A stretch of DNA of 64,000 nucleotides from a virus (taxonomy: Duplodnaviria > Caudoviricetes). The stretch is taken from IMG/VR virus record IMGVR_UViG_3300042268_000564; one strand, given 5' to 3'. A program made the position numbers and the translations under genes. The notes below the pieces were generated by a model, which saw only the letters and a list, made by a program, of their open reading frames with translations, searched no databases and was not told the origin of the DNA. The stretch's first letter is position 1. Every line of letters begins with the position of its first letter. Shown here piece after piece: positions 37,661 through 48,571 of this stretch.

Positions 37661-38719
37661 ATGATTCGACGAGTACAACTTAATATCAATTATGCAAATA
37701 ACGTGAAATTAACAACGTTAGACAGCTTTTTTGTTGAAGCTGCAAATGTTATTAATTTGTACATTGATAAATTATGGGTTAATCAAGATTTTAGTAGTAA
37801 ATTTGTAACCGAGAAAGTGGAGACTTGGCTATCAGCTAGGATGCAACAATGTCTTGGCAAGCAAGCTCTTGAAATCGTAAAATCTCAACGGAAAAAGAAG
37901 AAAAGAAGCAAGCCTGTTTTTCAACGAAAAACATTTAACTTAGACAGTAGATTCGTAAAAATAACACAAGATGTAAATAGTTTTGATATCTGGATTACAC
38001 TAACATCTATTGGCAACAAAATAAAATTAATATTGCCAAGTAAAAAACATCAACATTTTCATAAGTTTGATAAGTGGGAATTACAGAAATCAATCCGAGT
38101 TAGAAAAAATAATGATGGAAAATATTTCGTCGACGTTTACTTTAAAAAAGAAGAAAAAGTAAAAGAGACAGAAGGCGATGTAATCGGTTTAGATATTGGC
38201 TATAAAAAATTAATAACATGTTCTGATGGAAAATTTTATGGCGAAAATGTGGATGAAATTTATAATAAAATATCCCGAAAGAAACAAGGCAGCAAGGCTT
38301 TTAAACGAGCCTTGACCGAACGAGACAATAAAACAAATAAGATTGTAAATCAAATACAAATAGAGACTAGAAATATAAAAGAAATTGTAGTCGAAGATTT
38401 AAAGAATTTGAAACGTGGAACTAAGGGGCATCTTCGGAAGTCCTTTGTAAATAAGTTGCAGCGGTGGTCTTACGTAAATGTTTTGCGTAAATTATCGTGC
38501 ATGGCAGAAGAGTTAGGTTTTGTTTTAACTAAGATAAATCCTGCTTATACTAGCCAAAAATGCAGCAAATGTGGAGTGATTTGTAAAACAAACCGACAAG
38601 GTGAAAGTTACAAATGTGCTTGCGGTTTAGAGATGGATGCAGACTTAAATGCAGCTATTAATATTCTGCACTTGGGAATTTATAGTTCTCAAGCTTTATG
38701 TATGAAATTGCACAAATAA
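37661..38719 (+). mobile_element. tnpB: TnpB RNA-guided endonuclease (IS200/IS605 family), no adjacent TnpA
   Basis: RuvC residues in IGLDIG, VVEDL, DADLNAA; PAYTSQKCSKC Zn ribbon. Confidence 0.9.
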
Positions 38720-39097: not shown

Positions 39098-39345
39098 TGC
39101 AGGATGGTAGATATTATTTCAGGCTTGACCGTGAAAAGATGGTTATGGAGCCTATAAAGTTTGAGAATTTTGGCGATATTTGTAAAGATGATATCGTAAT
39201 GTATGTCGATGTTGATGACTCTGTCACAGATAATCCTATGTTAAGTAGCACGCCATTATTCAAAGTGAATGATGTGGGCACTAATGAACAAGGTGAAAAA
39301 TATCTGCAATCAGACAGAGTTACACAATTCTTTGTTGATTTGTGA
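39097..39345 (+). CDS. Hypothetical protein
   Basis: TAATG-coupled. Confidence 0.6.
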   Translation: MQDGRYYFRLDREKMVMEPIKFENFGDICKDDIVMYVDVDDSVTDNPMLSSTPLFKVNDVGTNEQGEKYLQSDRVTQFFVDL

Positions 39346-40100
39346 TGATTGACCTATTGCATGGCGATTGTCTTGATGAAATGCATAAGATTCAAGACAA
39401 GTCTGTAGATTTCATTTGTTGCGACTTGCCTTACGGCGCAATCGCGCAGGAATGGGACAAGCAGATAGATATTGTCATGTTATGGGAACATTACAATAGA
39501 ATCCTTAAAAAAGATGGTACAATCGCATTATTCGGCTCACAGCCATTTACCACACAATTAATCGCAAGTAACTTAAAGGATTTCAAATATTGCTGGTATT
39601 GGATTAAGAATCAGGGAACCAATTTCTTTCATGCCAATAAAATGCCAATAAGAAAAGTCGAAGAAATATGCATATTCAAAAATGGTAAATATTTCCCTCA
39701 AAAAACAAAAGGGCACGAACCTACCAGAGCCGCAATAGGTTGCAGTAACGGGAACGCCTACCATGGTGATAATAAGCGGAATTATGAGGGTGGCGATACA
39801 ACAAGGATGCCGACGAATGTGTTGAGTTTCAAGTGTGTGGATAATTACAATCGGTTTCATGTGTCAGAAAAGCCTGTTGATTTGTTGAGATATTTGGTGA
39901 AAACATACACAAATGAAAATGATGTGGTGCTTGATAATTGCATGGGCAGTGGCTCTATGGGGGTTGCTTGTATTGAAACAGGACGGCGGTTTGTTGGGAT
40001 AGAACTGGAACAGGAATATTTCGCTATAGCATCTGATAGAATTAATAATGCTTACAGAGATAATTCTGTCGATTTTGAAGAGGTGGACATGTTCGAATGA
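39342..40100 (+). CDS. DNA methyltransferase, N6-A/N4-C beta class
   Basis: CDLPY, EKPVDLL, DNCMGSGS, FVGIE; ends EEVDMFE. Confidence 0.92.
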   Translation: MMIDLLHGDCLDEMHKIQDKSVDFICCDLPYGAIAQEWDKQIDIVMLWEHYNRILKKDGTIALFGSQPFTTQLIASNLKDFKYCWYWIKNQGTNFFHANKMPIRKVEEICIFKNGKYFPQKTKGHEPTRAAIGCSNGNAYHGDNKRNYEGGDTTRMPTNVLSFKCVDNYNRFHVSEKPVDLLRYLVKTYTNENDVVLDNCMGSGSMGVACIETGRRFVGIELEQEYFAIASDRINNAYRDNSVDFEEVDMFE

Positions 40101-41142: not shown

Positions 41143-42345
41143 TTAAACTTGTCTTTGTTCATGGGGGACGGTACGCACCCCACTCAAGAAACGATTGCGG
41201 ATATTCAGGCTCCCATTATAGTCAGCATCTAAAGATACATGACATTGTTCGCAATCATATCTTTCACCATTTCTTGATTCCTTGCAGATTGCTCCGCAAT
41301 TAGAACATATTTGACTCGTATACTCAGGCGCAACAAATGCAAGAAAAACACGGTTTTCCGCACATTTATTGGCTAATCGCCCGAATAAAAGTCTACTATT
41401 CCAGCTCCCCAAAGTTTTTCGATGTTCCTTGGAGGATTTGCCTCTTTTGCTCATGTGACGAACCTTGAGGTCTTCCAAAACAATAGCACAAACATCTTTC
41501 AAATCCAGCTTGTTTACTTGTTGTCCAATATAGTCTTTAATCTCGGCAATAGTCTGTTTTGAGTTTTTACTGCCACGTTTCCTGCGTTTTAACTTTTGGA
41601 TTTTGGCTTCTATGTCTCTACCCAAAAATTCACCTTCAGACGTTGACATCAGTTTCTTGATTCCAACGTCAATACCAACAACCTTGCCAGTTGCTTTAAT
41701 TTCAAGAGTTTCTTTTTCCAGAAACAAATTAACGTACAGTTTATTGTCTATTCTGCGTAGTTGTACAGAAGACTTAACTGCATATCCGCTGTTAATATGT
41801 CTGTTAAACAGAGCATGTTTCTTAGTTGGCAATAATAAAGAAATTCGATTGCCGAAGATAGAGCCTAGTCTTACAGCGAGGTCAAATATTTTCATTTTAT
41901 TGGGAGACAAATATATCGTAACAAGGTCACTATTCAGGTCTATCGAGTTCCCGTTAAAAACAGGAACTTTGACTCTATCTCGGAACTTTCTGTCTTTTGC
42001 CCATACAGACCATTTTTGAGCCGTAAGTGCTTGAAATTTATTTTTGCCTTTGGCATAAGCATATACTCGTTTGTAAGCCTGATAAATTCGTTTCTGGTTC
42101 TTGGCTTGGGTTGCCTTTATCATTTGAACGGCTTGACGATAGGCGCATTTTACGGCTTTGCCACACAACCAAGTCGTAACACGTCTCCACTGTGTTGCAT
42201 TGGCTTTTGAAACAAGCTTCTTTTCGTTCCAATATAGAGTGATAAATTCATTGACAACACGTTGATATTCAACAAACAGCGAATCTAAAAGTTCTCGTTT
42301 TTTCGCTGTTATGAACTTTAAACTGTGTTGTGTACGTTTTATCAT
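41143..42345 (-). mobile_element. tnpB: TnpB RNA-guided endonuclease (IS200/IS605 family), no adjacent TnpA
   Basis: VGIDVG, VLEDL, DADYNG; PEYTSQICSNC..CEQC. Confidence 0.9.
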
Positions 42346-42740: not shown

Positions 42741-44102
42741 ATGATTGAATGTAAAGATAGTTTAGAATTTTTGAAAGAACGCCAAGACTATGAGAATGAT
42801 ATAATTTTCGCAGACCCACCATATGCACTTGGCTCTGAGATAATGATAAGACCTGACGGTAAAGTAGATTACAAAAAAGCCGCTGATTTTATGGGCAAGT
42901 GGGATATGCCCACAGGTGATTGGTGGGAACAGTGGTTTAAAGAAGCTTTCAGAAGCTTAAAGCACGGTGGTTATTGTATCTTATATGGTGTAGACCGCCA
43001 GTTACTTCTTTTTAAGTATTATGCTGCTTTAGCAGGTTTCATAGAACAGCAGAGCCTTTATTGGGCGTTTCTTAGTAATTTCCCAAAATCGGTTGACTTG
43101 AGCAAGATGCTTGATAAACATTATGGCTGCGAGCGAGAGGTTATAGGCAAATGTTTTGATGGCAAAGGTTCTGATAGTGGCAGTGGAATCTATGCCATGA
43201 ATAATGGTGAATCGAACCTCGGAAAAGAATATGATATCACTGCCCCCTCTCATGAATTAGCAAAAAAATATGATGGTTATAAATACAGCATATCACCTCT
43301 AAAACAAACCAACGAAACTGTAATGGTCTTTCAAAAGCCATATAAATCAGGCTCTTGCTTGCACGATACGTTGGCTTATGAAAACGGCGACAATACTTGT
43401 TGTTGTGGTGCGTTAAATATTGATGGAAATAGAGTTGCTACTGATGAAGAGCTTGGCAGGCAACAGGATAAAAGTCCTTTACCGCCAGAAAAAGGGTTTA
43501 ATAATAATAGTATTGGTGGTAAGTTTCAGGCAGGAAATCCAGCAGGACGTTTCCCTGCACAAACCCTTGTTGACTCGAAAATGGCTAAAGCATTAGACAA
43601 TCAAACTGATTCGGCTGATGGTGCTTCAAAATTGTTGCATATTTGTGACTTTGAATCAGATGAGCTTGAGCTTTACTATTATGAACCAAAGGTAAGCAAG
43701 AATGAACGTGACGCAGGTCTGGAAGAACTCGACCCAACAAATGCTAATAGGAACAAAGCTGCTTTAACCGCAGTGGAGAACAGAGAAGCGTCAAGTAAAA
43801 ATCCACATCCAACATTGAAACCATTGTCTTTGAACTTCCGTATTTTGAGCCTGTTTAAAACGCCTAACCCGCAGCGAATTTGCTTCCCTTTTGCTGGCAG
43901 CGGCTCAGAGGTTATCGGGGGCATTAAGGCAGGCTTTACAGATTGGACGGCGTGTGAGCTTTCGCAGGAATATGTAGATATTGCGATGAAGCGTATTGAA
44001 TATTATTCAAAAGGTGCGCCGGAACGCAAGGTAATAAAAGCTGTTGATGCCGATGGTAATGAAAAGAAAGTTATCGTTGAGCAATTGGATATGTTTGAAT
44101 GA
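42741..44102 (+). CDS. DNA methyltransferase, N6-A/N4-C beta class
   Basis: FADPPY, NFPKS, GRFPAQ, HPTLKP, PFAGSGS; paralog of 17351..18775; ends EQLDMFE. Confidence 0.9.
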   Translation: MIECKDSLEFLKERQDYENDIIFADPPYALGSEIMIRPDGKVDYKKAADFMGKWDMPTGDWWEQWFKEAFRSLKHGGYCILYGVDRQLLLFKYYAALAGFIEQQSLYWAFLSNFPKSVDLSKMLDKHYGCEREVIGKCFDGKGSDSGSGIYAMNNGESNLGKEYDITAPSHELAKKYDGYKYSISPLKQTNETVMVFQKPYKSGSCLHDTLAYENGDNTCCCGALNIDGNRVATDEELGRQQDKSPLPPEKGFNNNSIGGKFQAGNPAGRFPAQTLVDSKMAKALDNQTDSADGASKLLHICDFESDELELYYYEPKVSKNERDAGLEELDPTNANRNKAALTAVENREASSKNPHPTLKPLSLNFRILSLFKTPNPQRICFPFAGSGSEVIGGIKAGFTDWTACELSQEYVDIAMKRIEYYSKGAPERKVIKAVDADGNEKKVIVEQLDMFE

Positions 44103-44860
44103 ATGCAATTTATCATGCTGATTGTTTTGAGATTTTCCCAAAAATTGAATCTCAATCAGTGCAATTAATCTTGTGCGATTTACCGTATAACACAACTCAA
44201 TGTTCATGGGATTGCATATTGCCTCTCGACAAACTCTGGCAAGAATATGAGCGGATTATAAAGCCTAATGGCGCAATTGTGTTAACGGCGGCTCAACCAT
44301 TCACCAGCGAGCTTGTAATGAGCAATAAAAAGCTTTTTAAATATGAATGGATTTGGCGCAAAACAAAAGCACAGCATTTTGCTCAGGCACCATATCGTCC
44401 CATGACGAACCATGAAAGTGTCTTGGTATTTTCCTTTGGCGGCACAGCTAAAAATGCTAATAATCGCATGAAATATAATCCGCAGGGAATTGTAAAATGC
44501 AATATTACTTGCAAAGGGAAAAAGGCTACGCATTCAGAACACCGCAGTAGGTTAACAGACCAAGATGATTATGTTCAGGAATACACTAATTATCCGAAAA
44601 CGGTGATTGATTTCGCAAATGAGGGGAAGACTATTCATCCGACACAGAAACCTCTTTCTTTATTCGAGTATATCATAGAAACATATACTGACGCAGATGA
44701 CTTGGTTCTTGATAATTGTGCAGGCTCGTTTACTACTGCTGTCGCCTGCATCAACACTGATAGACGATATATTTGCATAGAGAAAGAGCAAAGATATTTT
44801 GAACTTGGCAAAGAGCGGATTGATTCGCATGTTCGAGAATATGATATGTTTAGTGATTAA
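44099..44860 (+). CDS. DNA methyltransferase, N6-A/N4-C beta class
   Basis: CDLPY, HPTQKP, DNCAGS; ends REYDMFSD. Confidence 0.92.
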   Translation: MNAIYHADCFEIFPKIESQSVQLILCDLPYNTTQCSWDCILPLDKLWQEYERIIKPNGAIVLTAAQPFTSELVMSNKKLFKYEWIWRKTKAQHFAQAPYRPMTNHESVLVFSFGGTAKNANNRMKYNPQGIVKCNITCKGKKATHSEHRSRLTDQDDYVQEYTNYPKTVIDFANEGKTIHPTQKPLSLFEYIIETYTDADDLVLDNCAGSFTTAVACINTDRRYICIEKEQRYFELGKERIDSHVREYDMFSD

Positions 44861-45664
44861 ATGACAAAATTCCAATGGACACCAGAGCTGGAAGTAAAAG
44901 TCCTTGCCTTGAAAAAGCGAGGTTTAACTTTTGCTCAAATAGCGGCTGAAATAGGAACCACAGAGCGTAGTGCAAAACATAAGGTTAGACGCTTAAGACA
45001 AGCAATGAATCAAGATAGGTATAAACATACTGACGAGAAATTGAAGCAAATACAAATTGCAGGATTAACACCTTGCCGCCGGATTTTGGAAACTCACGCA
45101 GGGTTCGGTGGTTTAACAAGACATTATGCGCAGGTGGCAGCCACTGTGACAAGCATTGAAATAAAGCAGGAACGAATTGATGAGATAAAAGCTTTGAGCT
45201 TGCCTAATGTGGAGCTGATTAAAGGTGATTCTGAAGTTGAGATTTATCGTCTGTTGCACGAACGTAGGGTTTTTGATGTGATAGATGTTGACCCTTATGG
45301 TTTGCCAAGTCGATATTTCCCTCATATTTTTGGGTTGATTGATGACGGTATATTGTTCTTAACATTCCCTGTAATGGGTGTTGCGCAGATTAATAAGATG
45401 ACGATAGCTCATTATCGTGTTTTCTGGGGGATAGAATTATCTGACAAAGATGTTTATCTGGATAAAATAAAGGCAAGGCTTGCAGAATATGCGTTTATGC
45501 ACAAACGGCAAATAGAAATTCTTGATGAGAAGCGAATCAATAGAATCTACAGGCTGGCTATTCAGGTAAAGAAAACATCATTGCTCGACATGCTTGGGCT
45601 TAAGGTGAATCGGAATAAAAAGATTGTTACAAAACAATATGAAGAAATGGACATGTTTGACTAA
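44861..45664 (+). CDS. HTH-fused SAM-dependent methyltransferase-like protein
   Basis: N-terminal WTPE...GLTFAQIAAEIG HTH; LETHAGFGG motif I; FDVIDVDPYG; ends EEMDMFD. Confidence 0.7.
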   Translation: MTKFQWTPELEVKVLALKKRGLTFAQIAAEIGTTERSAKHKVRRLRQAMNQDRYKHTDEKLKQIQIAGLTPCRRILETHAGFGGLTRHYAQVAATVTSIEIKQERIDEIKALSLPNVELIKGDSEVEIYRLLHERRVFDVIDVDPYGLPSRYFPHIFGLIDDGILFLTFPVMGVAQINKMTIAHYRVFWGIELSDKDVYLDKIKARLAEYAFMHKRQIEILDEKRINRIYRLAIQVKKTSLLDMLGLKVNRNKKIVTKQYEEMDMFD

Positions 45665-46170
45665 TGGGAATAGGTAAAAACAACGACTTTACGAGTAAAA
45701 AAGTGGAATACAGCACGCCTCTAAGCTTGTTCGTCCCTTTGAAAGATGAATTTGATATTACGGTAGACGTGTGCGCTGATGAAACTAATTTTAAGTGTGA
45801 GACATATTTTAGTGTCGATGACGATGCTTTAAGGCAGGATTGGACAGGGAACTGCTGGATGAACCCCCCGTTTACAAAAGATTTGAATAAATGGGTACGT
45901 AAAGCAAGAAACGATGCGAATGAATTTGGCGGGACAAAGGTTTGTCTTGTTCCAGTCAGGTCGAACACAAAGTGGTGGGGTGAGGTAATTGAAGACGCGG
46001 AAGTTAGATTTATTATTGGCGAGGTAAATTTTAATGATGAGCCTAGAGGACTGTGGTTGCCAATGTGTATATTGATTTTCGGCGAAAAGGCAAAAGCGGG
46101 AAAGTTTTCTACCATTTATTATAAAAAAAACACGCAAGTTAAAAATAATGAAATGGACATGTTTGATTAA
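45664..46170 (+). CDS. Phage N6-adenine DNA methyltransferase (small phage Dam family)
   Basis: STPLSLF..L..EF, DVCA, DALRQDW, WMNPPF, LVPVRSNTKWW; ends NEMDMFD. Confidence 0.9.
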   Translation: MGIGKNNDFTSKKVEYSTPLSLFVPLKDEFDITVDVCADETNFKCETYFSVDDDALRQDWTGNCWMNPPFTKDLNKWVRKARNDANEFGGTKVCLVPVRSNTKWWGEVIEDAEVRFIIGEVNFNDEPRGLWLPMCILIFGEKAKAGKFSTIYYKKNTQVKNNEMDMFD

Positions 46171-47147
46171 TGGCAGGGATAGAAGACCGTATAACAAACT
46201 ATGATGGTCAGCATTGCTGGCAATATGACATTCGATTGCGGAACCGTGACGAAGACATTGCCGAGTCTGGCTTGTCGCTTGACGAGATAGCAGCTTTAAG
46301 GTGTTCAGATTTTACTTTGCAACAAGAACCAAAAGAACAGAGCCATCACGAGATAAAACGATTCATTGAACGACACGAATGGCTTGGCACGATGCCACTT
46401 TATGCAACCCACTATTTTACGGCAAGATACAAAAACATCCTTGCAGGCGTGGTAATTATGGGTTTGCCCGGTAATTTTTCTAAGTTGCTTGGCAAGAAGT
46501 CTGAAGACCTTGAGCGTTTAATTAGTCGAGGTGCTTGTGTTTCGTGGTCGCCAAAGAACCTTGCGAGTAATTTGATTTCGTTTGCGATGAATTGGATGGT
46601 TCAGAATACAGAGTTTCGATTATTCACTGCATATAGCGATACTGAAGCAAAAGAACTGGGAACAATCTACCAAGCATGTAATTTTTATTACTTGGGCAAG
46701 ATTGCTGGTGCTACTTGGCAATATAAGTTGCCTGATGGAAAGCTAGTCTCTGACAGGCACTTTCGTAGTAGAAGTGTTTACAAAAGGCTCGCAAAAGCTG
46801 CTGGAATCTTTTGGGAAGCAAGTTGGCAGACCAGAGATACGGTACATCTGGATAGGATGCCTGACGAGGTTGCTTTTATTCTAAGGCAGATGTCGAAAGA
46901 TTATCAAAATTCCTGCGAACGTAGGAAAATATCGGCAAAACATAAATATGCCTATGTTTTGGGTAGAGACAAGCGAGAAACAAAAGCTTTACGGCGTGAA
47001 TTTGAATCAAGAAACAAAACATTTCCTTATCCAAAAGATAGATTGTCGCATGTTGAGGAACAAGTAGAATTTGAGGCACCTCTTGAGAATAAACTGGACG
47101 ATGTTTTATTAAAGCCTGCCTATACAGAAGTTGACATGTTTGAATAA
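46170..47147 (+). CDS. Mom-like adenine-modification protein (GNAT fold)
   Basis: FIERHEWLG, ISRGAC..PKNLASNLI, AYSD...GTIYQACNFYYLG; ends TEVDMFE. Confidence 0.75.
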   Translation: MAGIEDRITNYDGQHCWQYDIRLRNRDEDIAESGLSLDEIAALRCSDFTLQQEPKEQSHHEIKRFIERHEWLGTMPLYATHYFTARYKNILAGVVIMGLPGNFSKLLGKKSEDLERLISRGACVSWSPKNLASNLISFAMNWMVQNTEFRLFTAYSDTEAKELGTIYQACNFYYLGKIAGATWQYKLPDGKLVSDRHFRSRSVYKRLAKAAGIFWEASWQTRDTVHLDRMPDEVAFILRQMSKDYQNSCERRKISAKHKYAYVLGRDKRETKALRREFESRNKTFPYPKDRLSHVEEQVEFEAPLENKLDDVLLKPAYTEVDMFE

Positions 47148-47148
47148 A

Positions 47149-47192
47149 AAAATAAAAAAAGTGTTGACATGGAATAAGGTTAATGGTAATAT
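47149..47192 (+). promoter_or_regulatory. Strong promoter: A-tract, TTGACA-N17-TAATAT with extended -10 TG
   Basis: TTGACA 47164-47169, TG 47184-47185, TAATAT 47187-47192. Confidence 0.7.
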
Positions 47193-47198
47193 TAATTT

Positions 47199-48124
47199 GT
47201 TGCCACTCACACATGCGAGTGGATGGTAATTAAGCTGATTAAGCACACGTAGGAATACGAGTTCTTTGACAAATGAATAGGTTAAAATCGAAAAAGCTCT
47301 GAAGCTGTAGATGAGTAAAATCATTGACCCAACGCAATACGGGGAACGGAGAAAACACTCCGAATAGGCTTTCAAGGTGATTAGCGTCACCCCGACACCT
47401 ATTACAGTTTTCAAGAGAAAAGAAAGCATGACGCTGGCATGTGTTAGATTACGTGCGAATCGTAACTTCTCCTTGCCTCTGATTAAAAATCAGGAAGCAC
47501 TCTTGCAATCGCCTTGCCTTTTTTCGGAAAGAAAAACGCAAAGCACTGGCTTGCCAGTGTGGAGTAGATTGATATTTGCTCAACTTTTTATAGGCAAAGT
47601 TGCCTTTCCTATGAAAATGAGATTCAAAGATAATGTGATATGCAGATATTTGCGGGTGAAGATGTAAGATGTGGTAGTGTTAAAAACATCCTTAAGCAAG
47701 ATGCCATAACACTTTCATGTGAGTATTGGGGTTTCACAGACATTAGGACGCTCTGCGACCCGATGGATTTTGCTCTCGAAAGAGAGATTGCTGGCAATAG
47801 CAATAAACTATCACTGGTTTCTAAACGCATAAATCTTATTTACTAACATTAATGAGATTGTGATTCTGTGGACATGCTGCGACGAACAGCCCTACAAAGG
47901 AAGTAGGTTAAAAAGAGAACGAAGCGGACTTGCAAGTTAATCCTGCTTGCAAAACAAGCTCTTTATGTGATTGTGATACTATCATAATAGAGTCAAAGTC
48001 TGAGCCTCATTCGTAAAATTTCGATTTGCATTAAATTGCAAAATGCAAGTATACCCGACTGCTACCTATTCATTTCAGCCTATTAAAAGCCTGAAGCTCA
48101 CACCTTCAGGCTTTTATTTTTTTT
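47199..48124 (+). ncRNA. Candidate large structured non-coding RNA (~0.8-0.9 kb), family unassigned
   Basis: Own promoter and terminator, no credible ORF, 12-bp end-to-end helix 47271-47282 / 48064-48075, many hairpins. Confidence 0.7.
48085..48124 (+). terminator. Intrinsic terminator
   Basis: AAAAGCCTGAAG / CTTCAGGCTTTT plus T-run. Confidence 0.85.
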
Positions 48125-48215
48125 AGCTTTTTTGTGTCTATCTCGTATTGCGATATGCGATATCGCAGTTGTAGGGCTGATATACGCAATTTGCGAATAG
48201 CGAATAAAATTTTAT

Positions 48216-48243
48216 TTGACAATGTTATGGCTCTGTTTATAAT
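48216..48243 (+). promoter_or_regulatory. Promoter TTGACA-N16-TATAAT
   Basis: Perfect hexamers. Confidence 0.8.
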
Positions 48244-48274
48244 AAAAACAAGATAGGATAAAAGGAGCCAAGCG

Positions 48275-48571
48275 ATGAAAGTTTTGCTGGTTAAACCGAA
48301 TAAAGAGCCTGAAGTGGTAGAGATTGAGAACAGCCTTGAAGCCATGCAGCAGGTAGTAGGTGGCTTTATTGAAGTTACTTATCCTGATGGCAATGCAGGG
48401 GTTCTTATTTGCAACGAGGAAGGTAAGCTTAGAGGGTTGCCATTCAATCGAGATATAGGGCATGACATTATTGTTGGGGACTTCTTTATTTGCTCAAGTG
48501 ATATGCAGGGGAATTTCATTTCTTTGCCTGATAAGTGGATTGAATACTACAAAAAGATGTTTGCATTGTAA
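48275..48571 (+). CDS. DUF3846 family protein
   Basis: LEAMQQVVGGFIE, ICNEEGKLRGLPFNR, IVGDFFI. Confidence 0.85.
   Translation: MKVLLVKPNKEPEVVEIENSLEAMQQVVGGFIEVTYPDGNAGVLICNEEGKLRGLPFNRDIGHDIIVGDFFICSSDMQGNFISLPDKWIEYYKKMFAL

Follow-up and report, generated by a model that had tools for sequence, protein, structure and literature searches.

What occupies the largest gene-free interval in a 64,000-nucleotide (nt) stretch (hereafter the window) of the phage record IMGVR_UViG_3300042268_000564? This interval of 1.1 kb (positions 47148-48274) is the longest in the window without an open reading frame (ORF) of at least 100 amino acids, as an initial annotation of the DNA had held. It lies between a Mom-like gene, the last of a methyltransferase operon, and a DUF3846 gene. 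The annotation proposed that it contains a large, structured, stand-alone RNA gene. We are highly confident that the locus does encode a real structured RNA, and we consider it likely that this RNA constitutes a new family. The fuller picture, that of a free-standing gene for a large, ornate, trans-acting non-coding RNA of a new family, carried by a rare jumbo-phage lineage, transcribed in the manner of ribosomal RNA (rRNA) and acting as a folded particle, is in our judgement evenly poised between acceptance and doubt. No description of this RNA was found in the literature that we searched.

Predicted fold

The body of the putative RNA extends over 47262-48080 of the + strand (about 810-820 nt), to which all features of the fold given here belong, and is predicted to form 262 base pairs, 24 hairpins, and 7 multiway junctions. 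As the annotation's reading requires, it folds better than its dinucleotide shuffles (z = -4.66 with the terminator and -4.06 without); six other window stretches of the same length, folded as a control, gave z scores from -1.7 to +0.8.

The annotation had listed a perfect 12-bp helix joining the two ends, six hairpins, a promoter, and a terminator, and each of these sequences is present where it was placed. The helix, P1 (47271-47282 with 48064-48075), closes the RNA in the manner of a leader-trailer helix with a pair probability of 0.97. By itself, however, P1 carries no significance: the genome has about 18 separate places at which perfect 12-bp inverted repeats lie 600-1000 nt from each other, and we rejected P1 as stand-alone evidence. 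It counts because of its position, in that it overlaps a boxA element and is continued by a covarying long-range helix, P2 (47285-47293 with 48019-48027); neither the boxA that runs into its 5' arm nor P2 had been noted before. Five of the six hairpins form as originally drawn, with mean pair probabilities of 0.96-0.99, and two are capped by GNRA tetraloops (GAAA at 47778-81 and GCAA at 47794-97). The sixth, at 47930-47952, folds best otherwise, as GCAAGU/GCUUGC (47932-50), its outer bases being taken by a longer helix.

Further long-range helices (47325-47340 with 47723-47734) are predicted to enclose the 5' half of the RNA; among the natural variants described below, a change at 47733-34 improves the outer of these helices, and one at 47726 breaks a single inner pair. 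The enclosed half would comprise Domain A (47341-47472), a five-way junction that includes the hairpins CGGAG/CTCCG and GGTGA/TCACC and has a z score of -3.56 when folded alone; Domain B (47502-47668), a six-way junction; and an extended hairpin (47669-47720), whose tip (47682-47711) carries the loop palindrome CUUAAG, a candidate intermolecular contact. A 30-nt contig overlap suggests that this tip is common to near and distant variants. Beyond these, the predicted fold has Domain C (47734-47871; z = -4.09 alone), a six-way junction bearing the two GNRA-capped hairpins, and Domain D (47917-48012), a three-way junction.

Two further patterns were discarded: (i) a CAGAC/GUCUG pseudoknot, which competes with a helix (47734-40/47865-71) supported by substitutions in one set of variants (X2, below), and (ii) an enrichment of UUGC/GCAA, whose z score is about 3 among 256 words.

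Natural variants

Variants of the RNA were found in three public runs labelled sediment metatranscriptome (X1, X2, and X3), X2 and X3 belonging to one study. One of the contigs is identical to the window, and the variants range from 85 to 97% identity, the near ones being about 96% identical and one about 85% identical over the 5' part. A distant form aligns only at 47682-47752 and at 47991-48016, the latter being the 3' strand of Domain D; the two segments are 228 nt apart, versus 238 nt in the window. Contigs from all three runs are confined to 47248-48074, apart from one unrelated T-rich piece, and carry no flanking genes. X1 (RNA-Seq) provides a 237-nt contig identical to 47681-47917, while X2 and X3 are flagged 'probably DNA'. 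Contigs reveal neither transcript ends nor levels, X2 and X3 carry the DNA flag, and the flanks of relatives may differ; for these reasons we did not count any of these contigs toward transcription or processing.

The listed substitutions were mapped onto the fold predicted from the window sequence alone, with a simple position shuffle as the null. Ten of the 14 substitutions in X2 fall in helices, and none of the ten breaks its pair, against 3.7 expected (p = 0.003). Pairing is likewise retained by 17 of the 21 paired substitutions in X3, where 4 pairs are broken against 9.7 expected (p = 0.005), and X3 contains three two-sided changes against 0.3 expected (p = 0.003). Two such changes each lie within one contig: G47564-C47579 to A-U, in Domain B, and U47840-A47851 to C-G, in Domain C. 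The replacement of C47289-G48023 in P2 by U-A spans 730 nt; its two sites are on different contigs, and it is present in every covering contig of both runs. Finally, in the 30 letters available for the distant variant, the GAAA-capped hairpin and the helix preceding it are both retained despite a 1-nt deletion.

These substitutions also bear on the strand. The minus strand folds with a z score of -7.0, more negative than that of the plus strand, and might on that ground have been taken for the RNA. Placed on the minus-strand fold, however, the same changes break six of six pairs in X2 and 13 of 20 in X3. Together with the wobble (G-U) pattern, this indicates that the selected structure is that of the + strand RNA, and the minus strand was rejected.

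Might the interval be no RNA gene at all, but rather a DNA-level element or a gap that folds by chance? The RNA reading does rest on sequence, and two of the three variant runs carry the DNA flag. Nevertheless, the G-U-keeping substitutions, like the GNRA loops, are features of the + strand RNA specifically, and the fold is surrounded by a frame of promoter, boxA, and terminator. We regard this explanation as scarcely credible.

Coding potential

Gene finders call a 68-amino-acid ORF inside the RNA (47640-47846, + strand), and 7 of its 15 listed substitutions are synonymous, as might be expected of an mRNA for a small protein. No homologue of this ORF was found among 5.8 billion clusters, and no Shine-Dalgarno sequence precedes it; further, it suffers the 1-nt deletion in the distant variant, and the substitutions follow base pairs. 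An ORF on the minus strand acquires a stop in X3. We judge the 68-amino-acid call to be spurious and, on these sequence features, the locus is not a protein gene. The related proposal, that the interval is a cis-regulatory or antisense element of the flanking genes, is contradicted by the terminator that precedes the downstream gene, by that gene's own promoter, and by relatives of the Mom-like gene that lack the element. In addition, a search of the phage genome for an antisense target gave nothing convincing (best E = 0.09). Taken together, the small-protein and cis-acting explanations are very improbable.

Transcription signals

The strong promoter and clear terminator of the initial annotation are both borne out. 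A sigma-70/sigmaA-type promoter (47146-47192, + strand), identified by consensus match only, consists of an A-tract (47146-47160), a -35 box TTGACA (47164-69), a 17-nt spacer, and an extended -10 element TGnTAATAT ending at 47192; from it, transcription is predicted to start near 47199. Promoter-like sites are no more frequent than in shuffled sequence. A direct repeat, GTTGACATG, at 47131-47139 and 47163-47171 supplies an extra TTGACA 32 nt upstream of the -35 box, with no matching -10 element. At the other end, the predicted intrinsic terminator (48084-48124, + strand) comprises a 13-pair stem (48084-48116) and a U-tract. Beyond it, a separate promoter matching the consensus at 12 of 12 positions (48216-48243, + strand) serves the DUF3846 gene (48275-48571), which rules out the RNA as the leader of that gene; with its own promoter and terminator, the unit stands alone.

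From the predicted start onward come two features reminiscent of rRNA leaders. The first is a hairpin (47199-47230, + strand) that occupies the position of boxB in such leaders, its z score of -1.7 being weak alone. The second, GTTCTTTGACAA (47261-47272, + strand), occurs as a single exact copy in the phage genome. We identify it as a boxA-type antitermination element because the same motif, together with its TGAAYA continuation, is found about 80 nt before a 16S rRNA gene in a Bacilli genome. The continuation of boxA forms the 5' arm of the 12-bp closing helix. In rRNA operons, boxA recruits NusB, and the leader strand is kept near the polymerase and pairs with the trailer as it emerges (PMC10250234). 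The unit is therefore laid out, as far as its motifs go, like a small rRNA operon, and we think it probable that boxA would be used in making the RNA. No NusB gene was found in the phage genome, so host factors would serve the element.

The boxA motif is present in 75 IMG/VR stretches, several copies lying within tRNA clusters. More generally, boxA followed by TGAATAGG is common in phage contigs, both in transfer RNA (tRNA) clusters and ahead of ORFs (IMG/VR, L082-L156). One IMG/VR stretch (L091) has two inverted copies of this combined motif about 430 nt apart, and in seven (L082, L095, L108, L124, L133, L139, and L142) a complementary CCTATTCA lies 270-550 nt downstream of it; these are possibly other helix-closed RNAs.

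An rRNA-like leader, a boxA, and a closing helix would also suit a monomeric RNA that acts with proteins, either as a ribonucleoprotein scaffold or as a sponge that takes up ribosomal proteins or Nus factors, and that is made like rRNA because the same factors are handled. OLE works with proteins, and GOLLD is reported to pull down ribosomes (PMC12286853). On the other hand, no rRNA-like or known protein-binding motif was detected (Rfam, E<=10), and no neighbouring partner gene is conserved. We hold this explanation to be unlikely, if the least so of those considered here.

Searches for relatives

Rfam 15 gave no match to the RNA at the gathering score and, at E<=10, only terminator-driven or low-score noise. 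Specifically, no match was obtained for transfer-messenger RNA (tmRNA; ARAGORN and Rfam), RNase P RNA, 6S RNA, or signal recognition particle RNA (Rfam). The annotation's view of a large stand-alone RNA that is neither GOLLD, ROOL, tmRNA, RNase P RNA, nor an intron is thus upheld, and the lack of an Rfam match now stands alongside relatives with structure-keeping substitutions, the combination that it had taken to indicate a new class.

As large, complex bacterial RNAs are frequently catalytic (PMC5737381), a ribozyme was also considered: an ORF-less RNA derived from a group I or group II intron (HYER-like), or a new catalytic class. A GGACUU/AAGUCU helix (47926-31 / 47996-48001), whose 3' strand is conserved, loosely recalls P7 of group I introns, but this resemblance was rejected as a lead. 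The group I model (RF00028) finds nothing at the locus, yet it recovers the phage's own tRNA intron at 81.9 bits. Exons are absent, and inspection of the sequence revealed neither a bulged G-binding site nor a P3-P7 pseudoknot. A promoter and a terminator bound the unit; no group II domain V matches at the locus, and no reverse transcriptase, such as a retron or group II element would bring, was found in the phage genome. Catalysis is, accordingly, quite improbable.

Homologues of the RNA itself were not found by blastn in phages and plasmids or in 401 Bacillota genomes. A 210-nt covariance model run over 29 large phage records, 27 loci, and 81 Bacillota genomes returned none, and the matches to five DNA patterns in IMG/VR, JGI metagenomes, and GTDB were all due to chance, as judged by nhmmer and inspection. 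There is no paralogue elsewhere in the phage genome. Other assemblies of this phage show 100% identity and are hence uninformative.

The annotation had also stressed the position of the RNA directly after a modification operon. The adjacency is real, but a functional link is unsupported: neither 80 Mom-gene loci in IMG/VR nor the three closest Mom contigs carry the RNA. In those three contigs, the next gene begins 20-210 nt after the Mom gene; one of them (ERR15087773) and a related tail sheath gene derive from a single run. With Mom relatives examined that lack the RNA, the link looks incidental, as it probably is. The operon itself (42741-47147) comprises five abutting modification genes, which encode two N6/N4 methyltransferases, a 267-amino-acid protein with a weak methyltransferase or helix-turn-helix signal, a Dam-type methylase, and the Mom-family enzyme. 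A further methyltransferase gene lies at 39342-40100, and two TnpB/Cas12f-like genes are close to the cluster (37661-38719, + strand; 41143-42345, - strand).

The phage and its other features

The window belongs to a virus record of 393,839 bases (about 394 kb). A terminase, two tail sheaths, a ribonucleotide reductase, and some 30 tRNA genes mark the virus as a jumbo myovirus. Among 1.8 billion representatives, only about ten relatives of its tail sheath were found, at 38-64% identity, and there was none in IMG/VR or GenBank phages; by this measure the lineage is rare. The contigs that carry the sheath relatives were not searchable whole. The promoter style, the form of boxA, and tandem DnaA boxes suggest that the host is probably a member of the Bacillota.

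Several observations concern other parts of the genome. A tRNA-Leu(UAA) gene outside the window (C1:123983-124788; L236:3983-4788; - strand) is split by a group I intron (RF00028, 81.9 bits), which sits where cyanobacterial trnL is known to have one; the intron contains an ORF with an HNH-like motif, recognised by eye. A second candidate non-coding RNA lies just before the tRNA cluster (C1:~135240-135750; L236:15240-15750; - strand), where a promoter leads about 470 nt with no obvious gene; the enclosing 1.1 kb has a z score of -5.4 and no Rfam match. At C1:~138840-139640 (L236:18840-19640), a gene-free, very self-complementary region (z of about -11 on both strands) adjoins two tandem DnaA boxes, TTATCCACA, and is a probable replication origin. 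The terminase large subunit (987 amino acids; C1:188061-191024; L230:10061-13024) has an internal HNH/endonuclease-like insertion that is probably an intein. In the searched sequences, a giant-virus-like contig (L158:9498-9833, L159) carries a group I intron in what by eye resembles an RNA polymerase large-subunit gene; the pattern match there is on the opposite strand and was dismissed as chance.

Proposed mechanism

We propose that the RNA could be made and act as follows. Host RNA polymerase would start at the strong consensus promoter, and boxA, once transcribed, would recruit host NusB/NusE as on rRNA operons, with the effect that the 5' arm is held near the polymerase and the 800-nt untranslated RNA escapes premature termination. 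The 5' arm would then pair with the 3' end and the second long-range helix would close the multi-junction fold, a secondary structure that the substitutions support. The closed RNA, presumably stable, would accumulate and act as a folded particle with no dedicated partner protein; by analogy with GOLLD, ROOL, and OLE, it may dimerise or build cages, held together by loop contacts and by the docking of GNRA loops. During infection, it might scaffold host factors that bind or cleave RNA, or act as a decoy for them, which is speculative.

A homo-oligomer is suggested by the size of the RNA, its junction count, its two GNRA loops, the shared 30-nt hairpin tip with CUUAAG, and the fact that no partner gene is conserved. 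That the RNA forms an RNA-only oligomer is in our view nearly, though not quite, an even prospect, and the decoy or scaffold role is more doubtful still.

Several points weigh against the account that we favor. The covariation comes from roughly four closely related variants, which two runs of a single study supplied and in which four paired changes in X3 break pairs; 39 substitutions are not listed, and the phase between contigs is inferred. IMG/VR, JGI, samples of GTDB, and GenBank phages and plasmids yielded no homologue. The CUUAAG palindrome is weak (-3.2 kcal/mol), and a 6-nt loop palindrome appears in 37% of shuffles. No pseudoknot of at least 5 pairs was found among the bases left unpaired in the minimum free energy (MFE) structure, whereas both ROOL and GOLLD have pseudoknots. 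Lastly, the oligomer and the decoy or scaffold steps are drawn wholly by analogy.

Very few bacterial RNAs longer than about 600 nt approach such complexity, namely rRNA, group II introns, GOLLD, ROOL, and OLE, and no function is known for those borne by phages, although they form cages. An independent class of about 810 nt would be a ready target for cryo-electron microscopy and would bear on whether large natural RNAs form cages in general, a question posed previously (PMC12286853). It would bear, too, on whether a phage exploits rRNA antitermination for a non-ribosomal RNA, and on what such an RNA does to host translation or defence. With its own promoter, boxA, and terminator, the unit could be moved whole into a Bacillota host. 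A bolder outcome, in which this RNA founds yet another class of giant ornate RNAs of bacteria and phages, with a fold unrelated to those of GOLLD, ROOL, and OLE, an rRNA-mimicking unit, and either an RNA-only architecture or an activity (catalytic or in host takeover) that is new, is conceivable, although we would sooner doubt it.

Comparison with known large RNAs

The unit resembles an rRNA transcription unit in its strong promoter, its leader hairpin, a boxA nearly identical to that preceding a 16S rRNA gene in one Bacilli genome, and a helix that joins its ends, here P1 continued by the covarying P2. It differs in that the enclosed RNA has no Rfam match and is not rRNA, and in that its helix has 11-15 bp, versus the more than 17 bp needed for 30S assembly in E. 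coli.

With OLE, the RNA shares a large, multi-junction, bacterial form, and OLE offers precedents for both RNA-only dimers and protein partners. Unlike OLE, it is phage-borne and has no match to the family in Rfam, and none of the flanking genes scanned is oapA-like. GOLLD, ROOL, and OLE assemble via kissing loops and minor-groove contacts (PMC12286853, PMC12990946).

The closest comparison is with GOLLD and ROOL themselves, and a highly diverged member of either, missed by the Rfam models, has to be considered. GOLLD (RF02032) is a phage-encoded RNA of 700-833 nt (about 700-830 nt being the length expected of a member) with more than 25 helices and multiway junctions, traits that the predicted fold shares, and a length of about 810 nt in a 394-kb virus record falls within that class; GOLLD exceeds 800 nt and ROOL has six junctions (PMC12286853, PMC5737381), 7 being predicted here. 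Moreover, the Rfam model of GOLLD spans only 416 positions. Neither model, however, matches the RNA at E<=10. The GOLLD model, which represents the conserved 3' domain (cut-off 150 bits), has no such match in the genome or the region, and the only match of the ROOL model (RF03087; cut-off 99.1 bits) in the genome is a 29-nt, 10-bit one elsewhere, whereas the same model detects the true ROOL of L. salivarius, on pMP118, at 130.4 bits. No local similarity was found between that ROOL and this RNA. Both families typically lie near tRNAs (PMC12286853, PMC5737381), and GOLLD often adjoins tRNA genes; the present locus (C1 366 kb) and the tRNA cluster (C1 106-135 kb) are separated by at least 130 kb, and no tRNA gene was found in the window. 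We therefore think a diverged GOLLD or ROOL decidedly unlikely.

In contrast to GOLLD, the RNA stands alone with a boxA inside its closing helix and has no detected pseudoknot; GOLLD forms an RNA-only nanocage, which for the present RNA is a conjecture. Relative to ROOL, likewise a large ornate RNA of phages and plasmids, it is about 230 nt longer and lies outside any tRNA island, and no canonical boxA adjoins the one ROOL that we examined. ROOL has pseudoknots, and the homologues of this RNA are too few to exclude them here. The likeness extends even to annotation, as a spurious short ORF has been called inside the L. salivarius ROOL (PMC5643018), just as inside this RNA. Overall, the RNA broadly resembles GOLLD and ROOL in kind but belongs to neither family.
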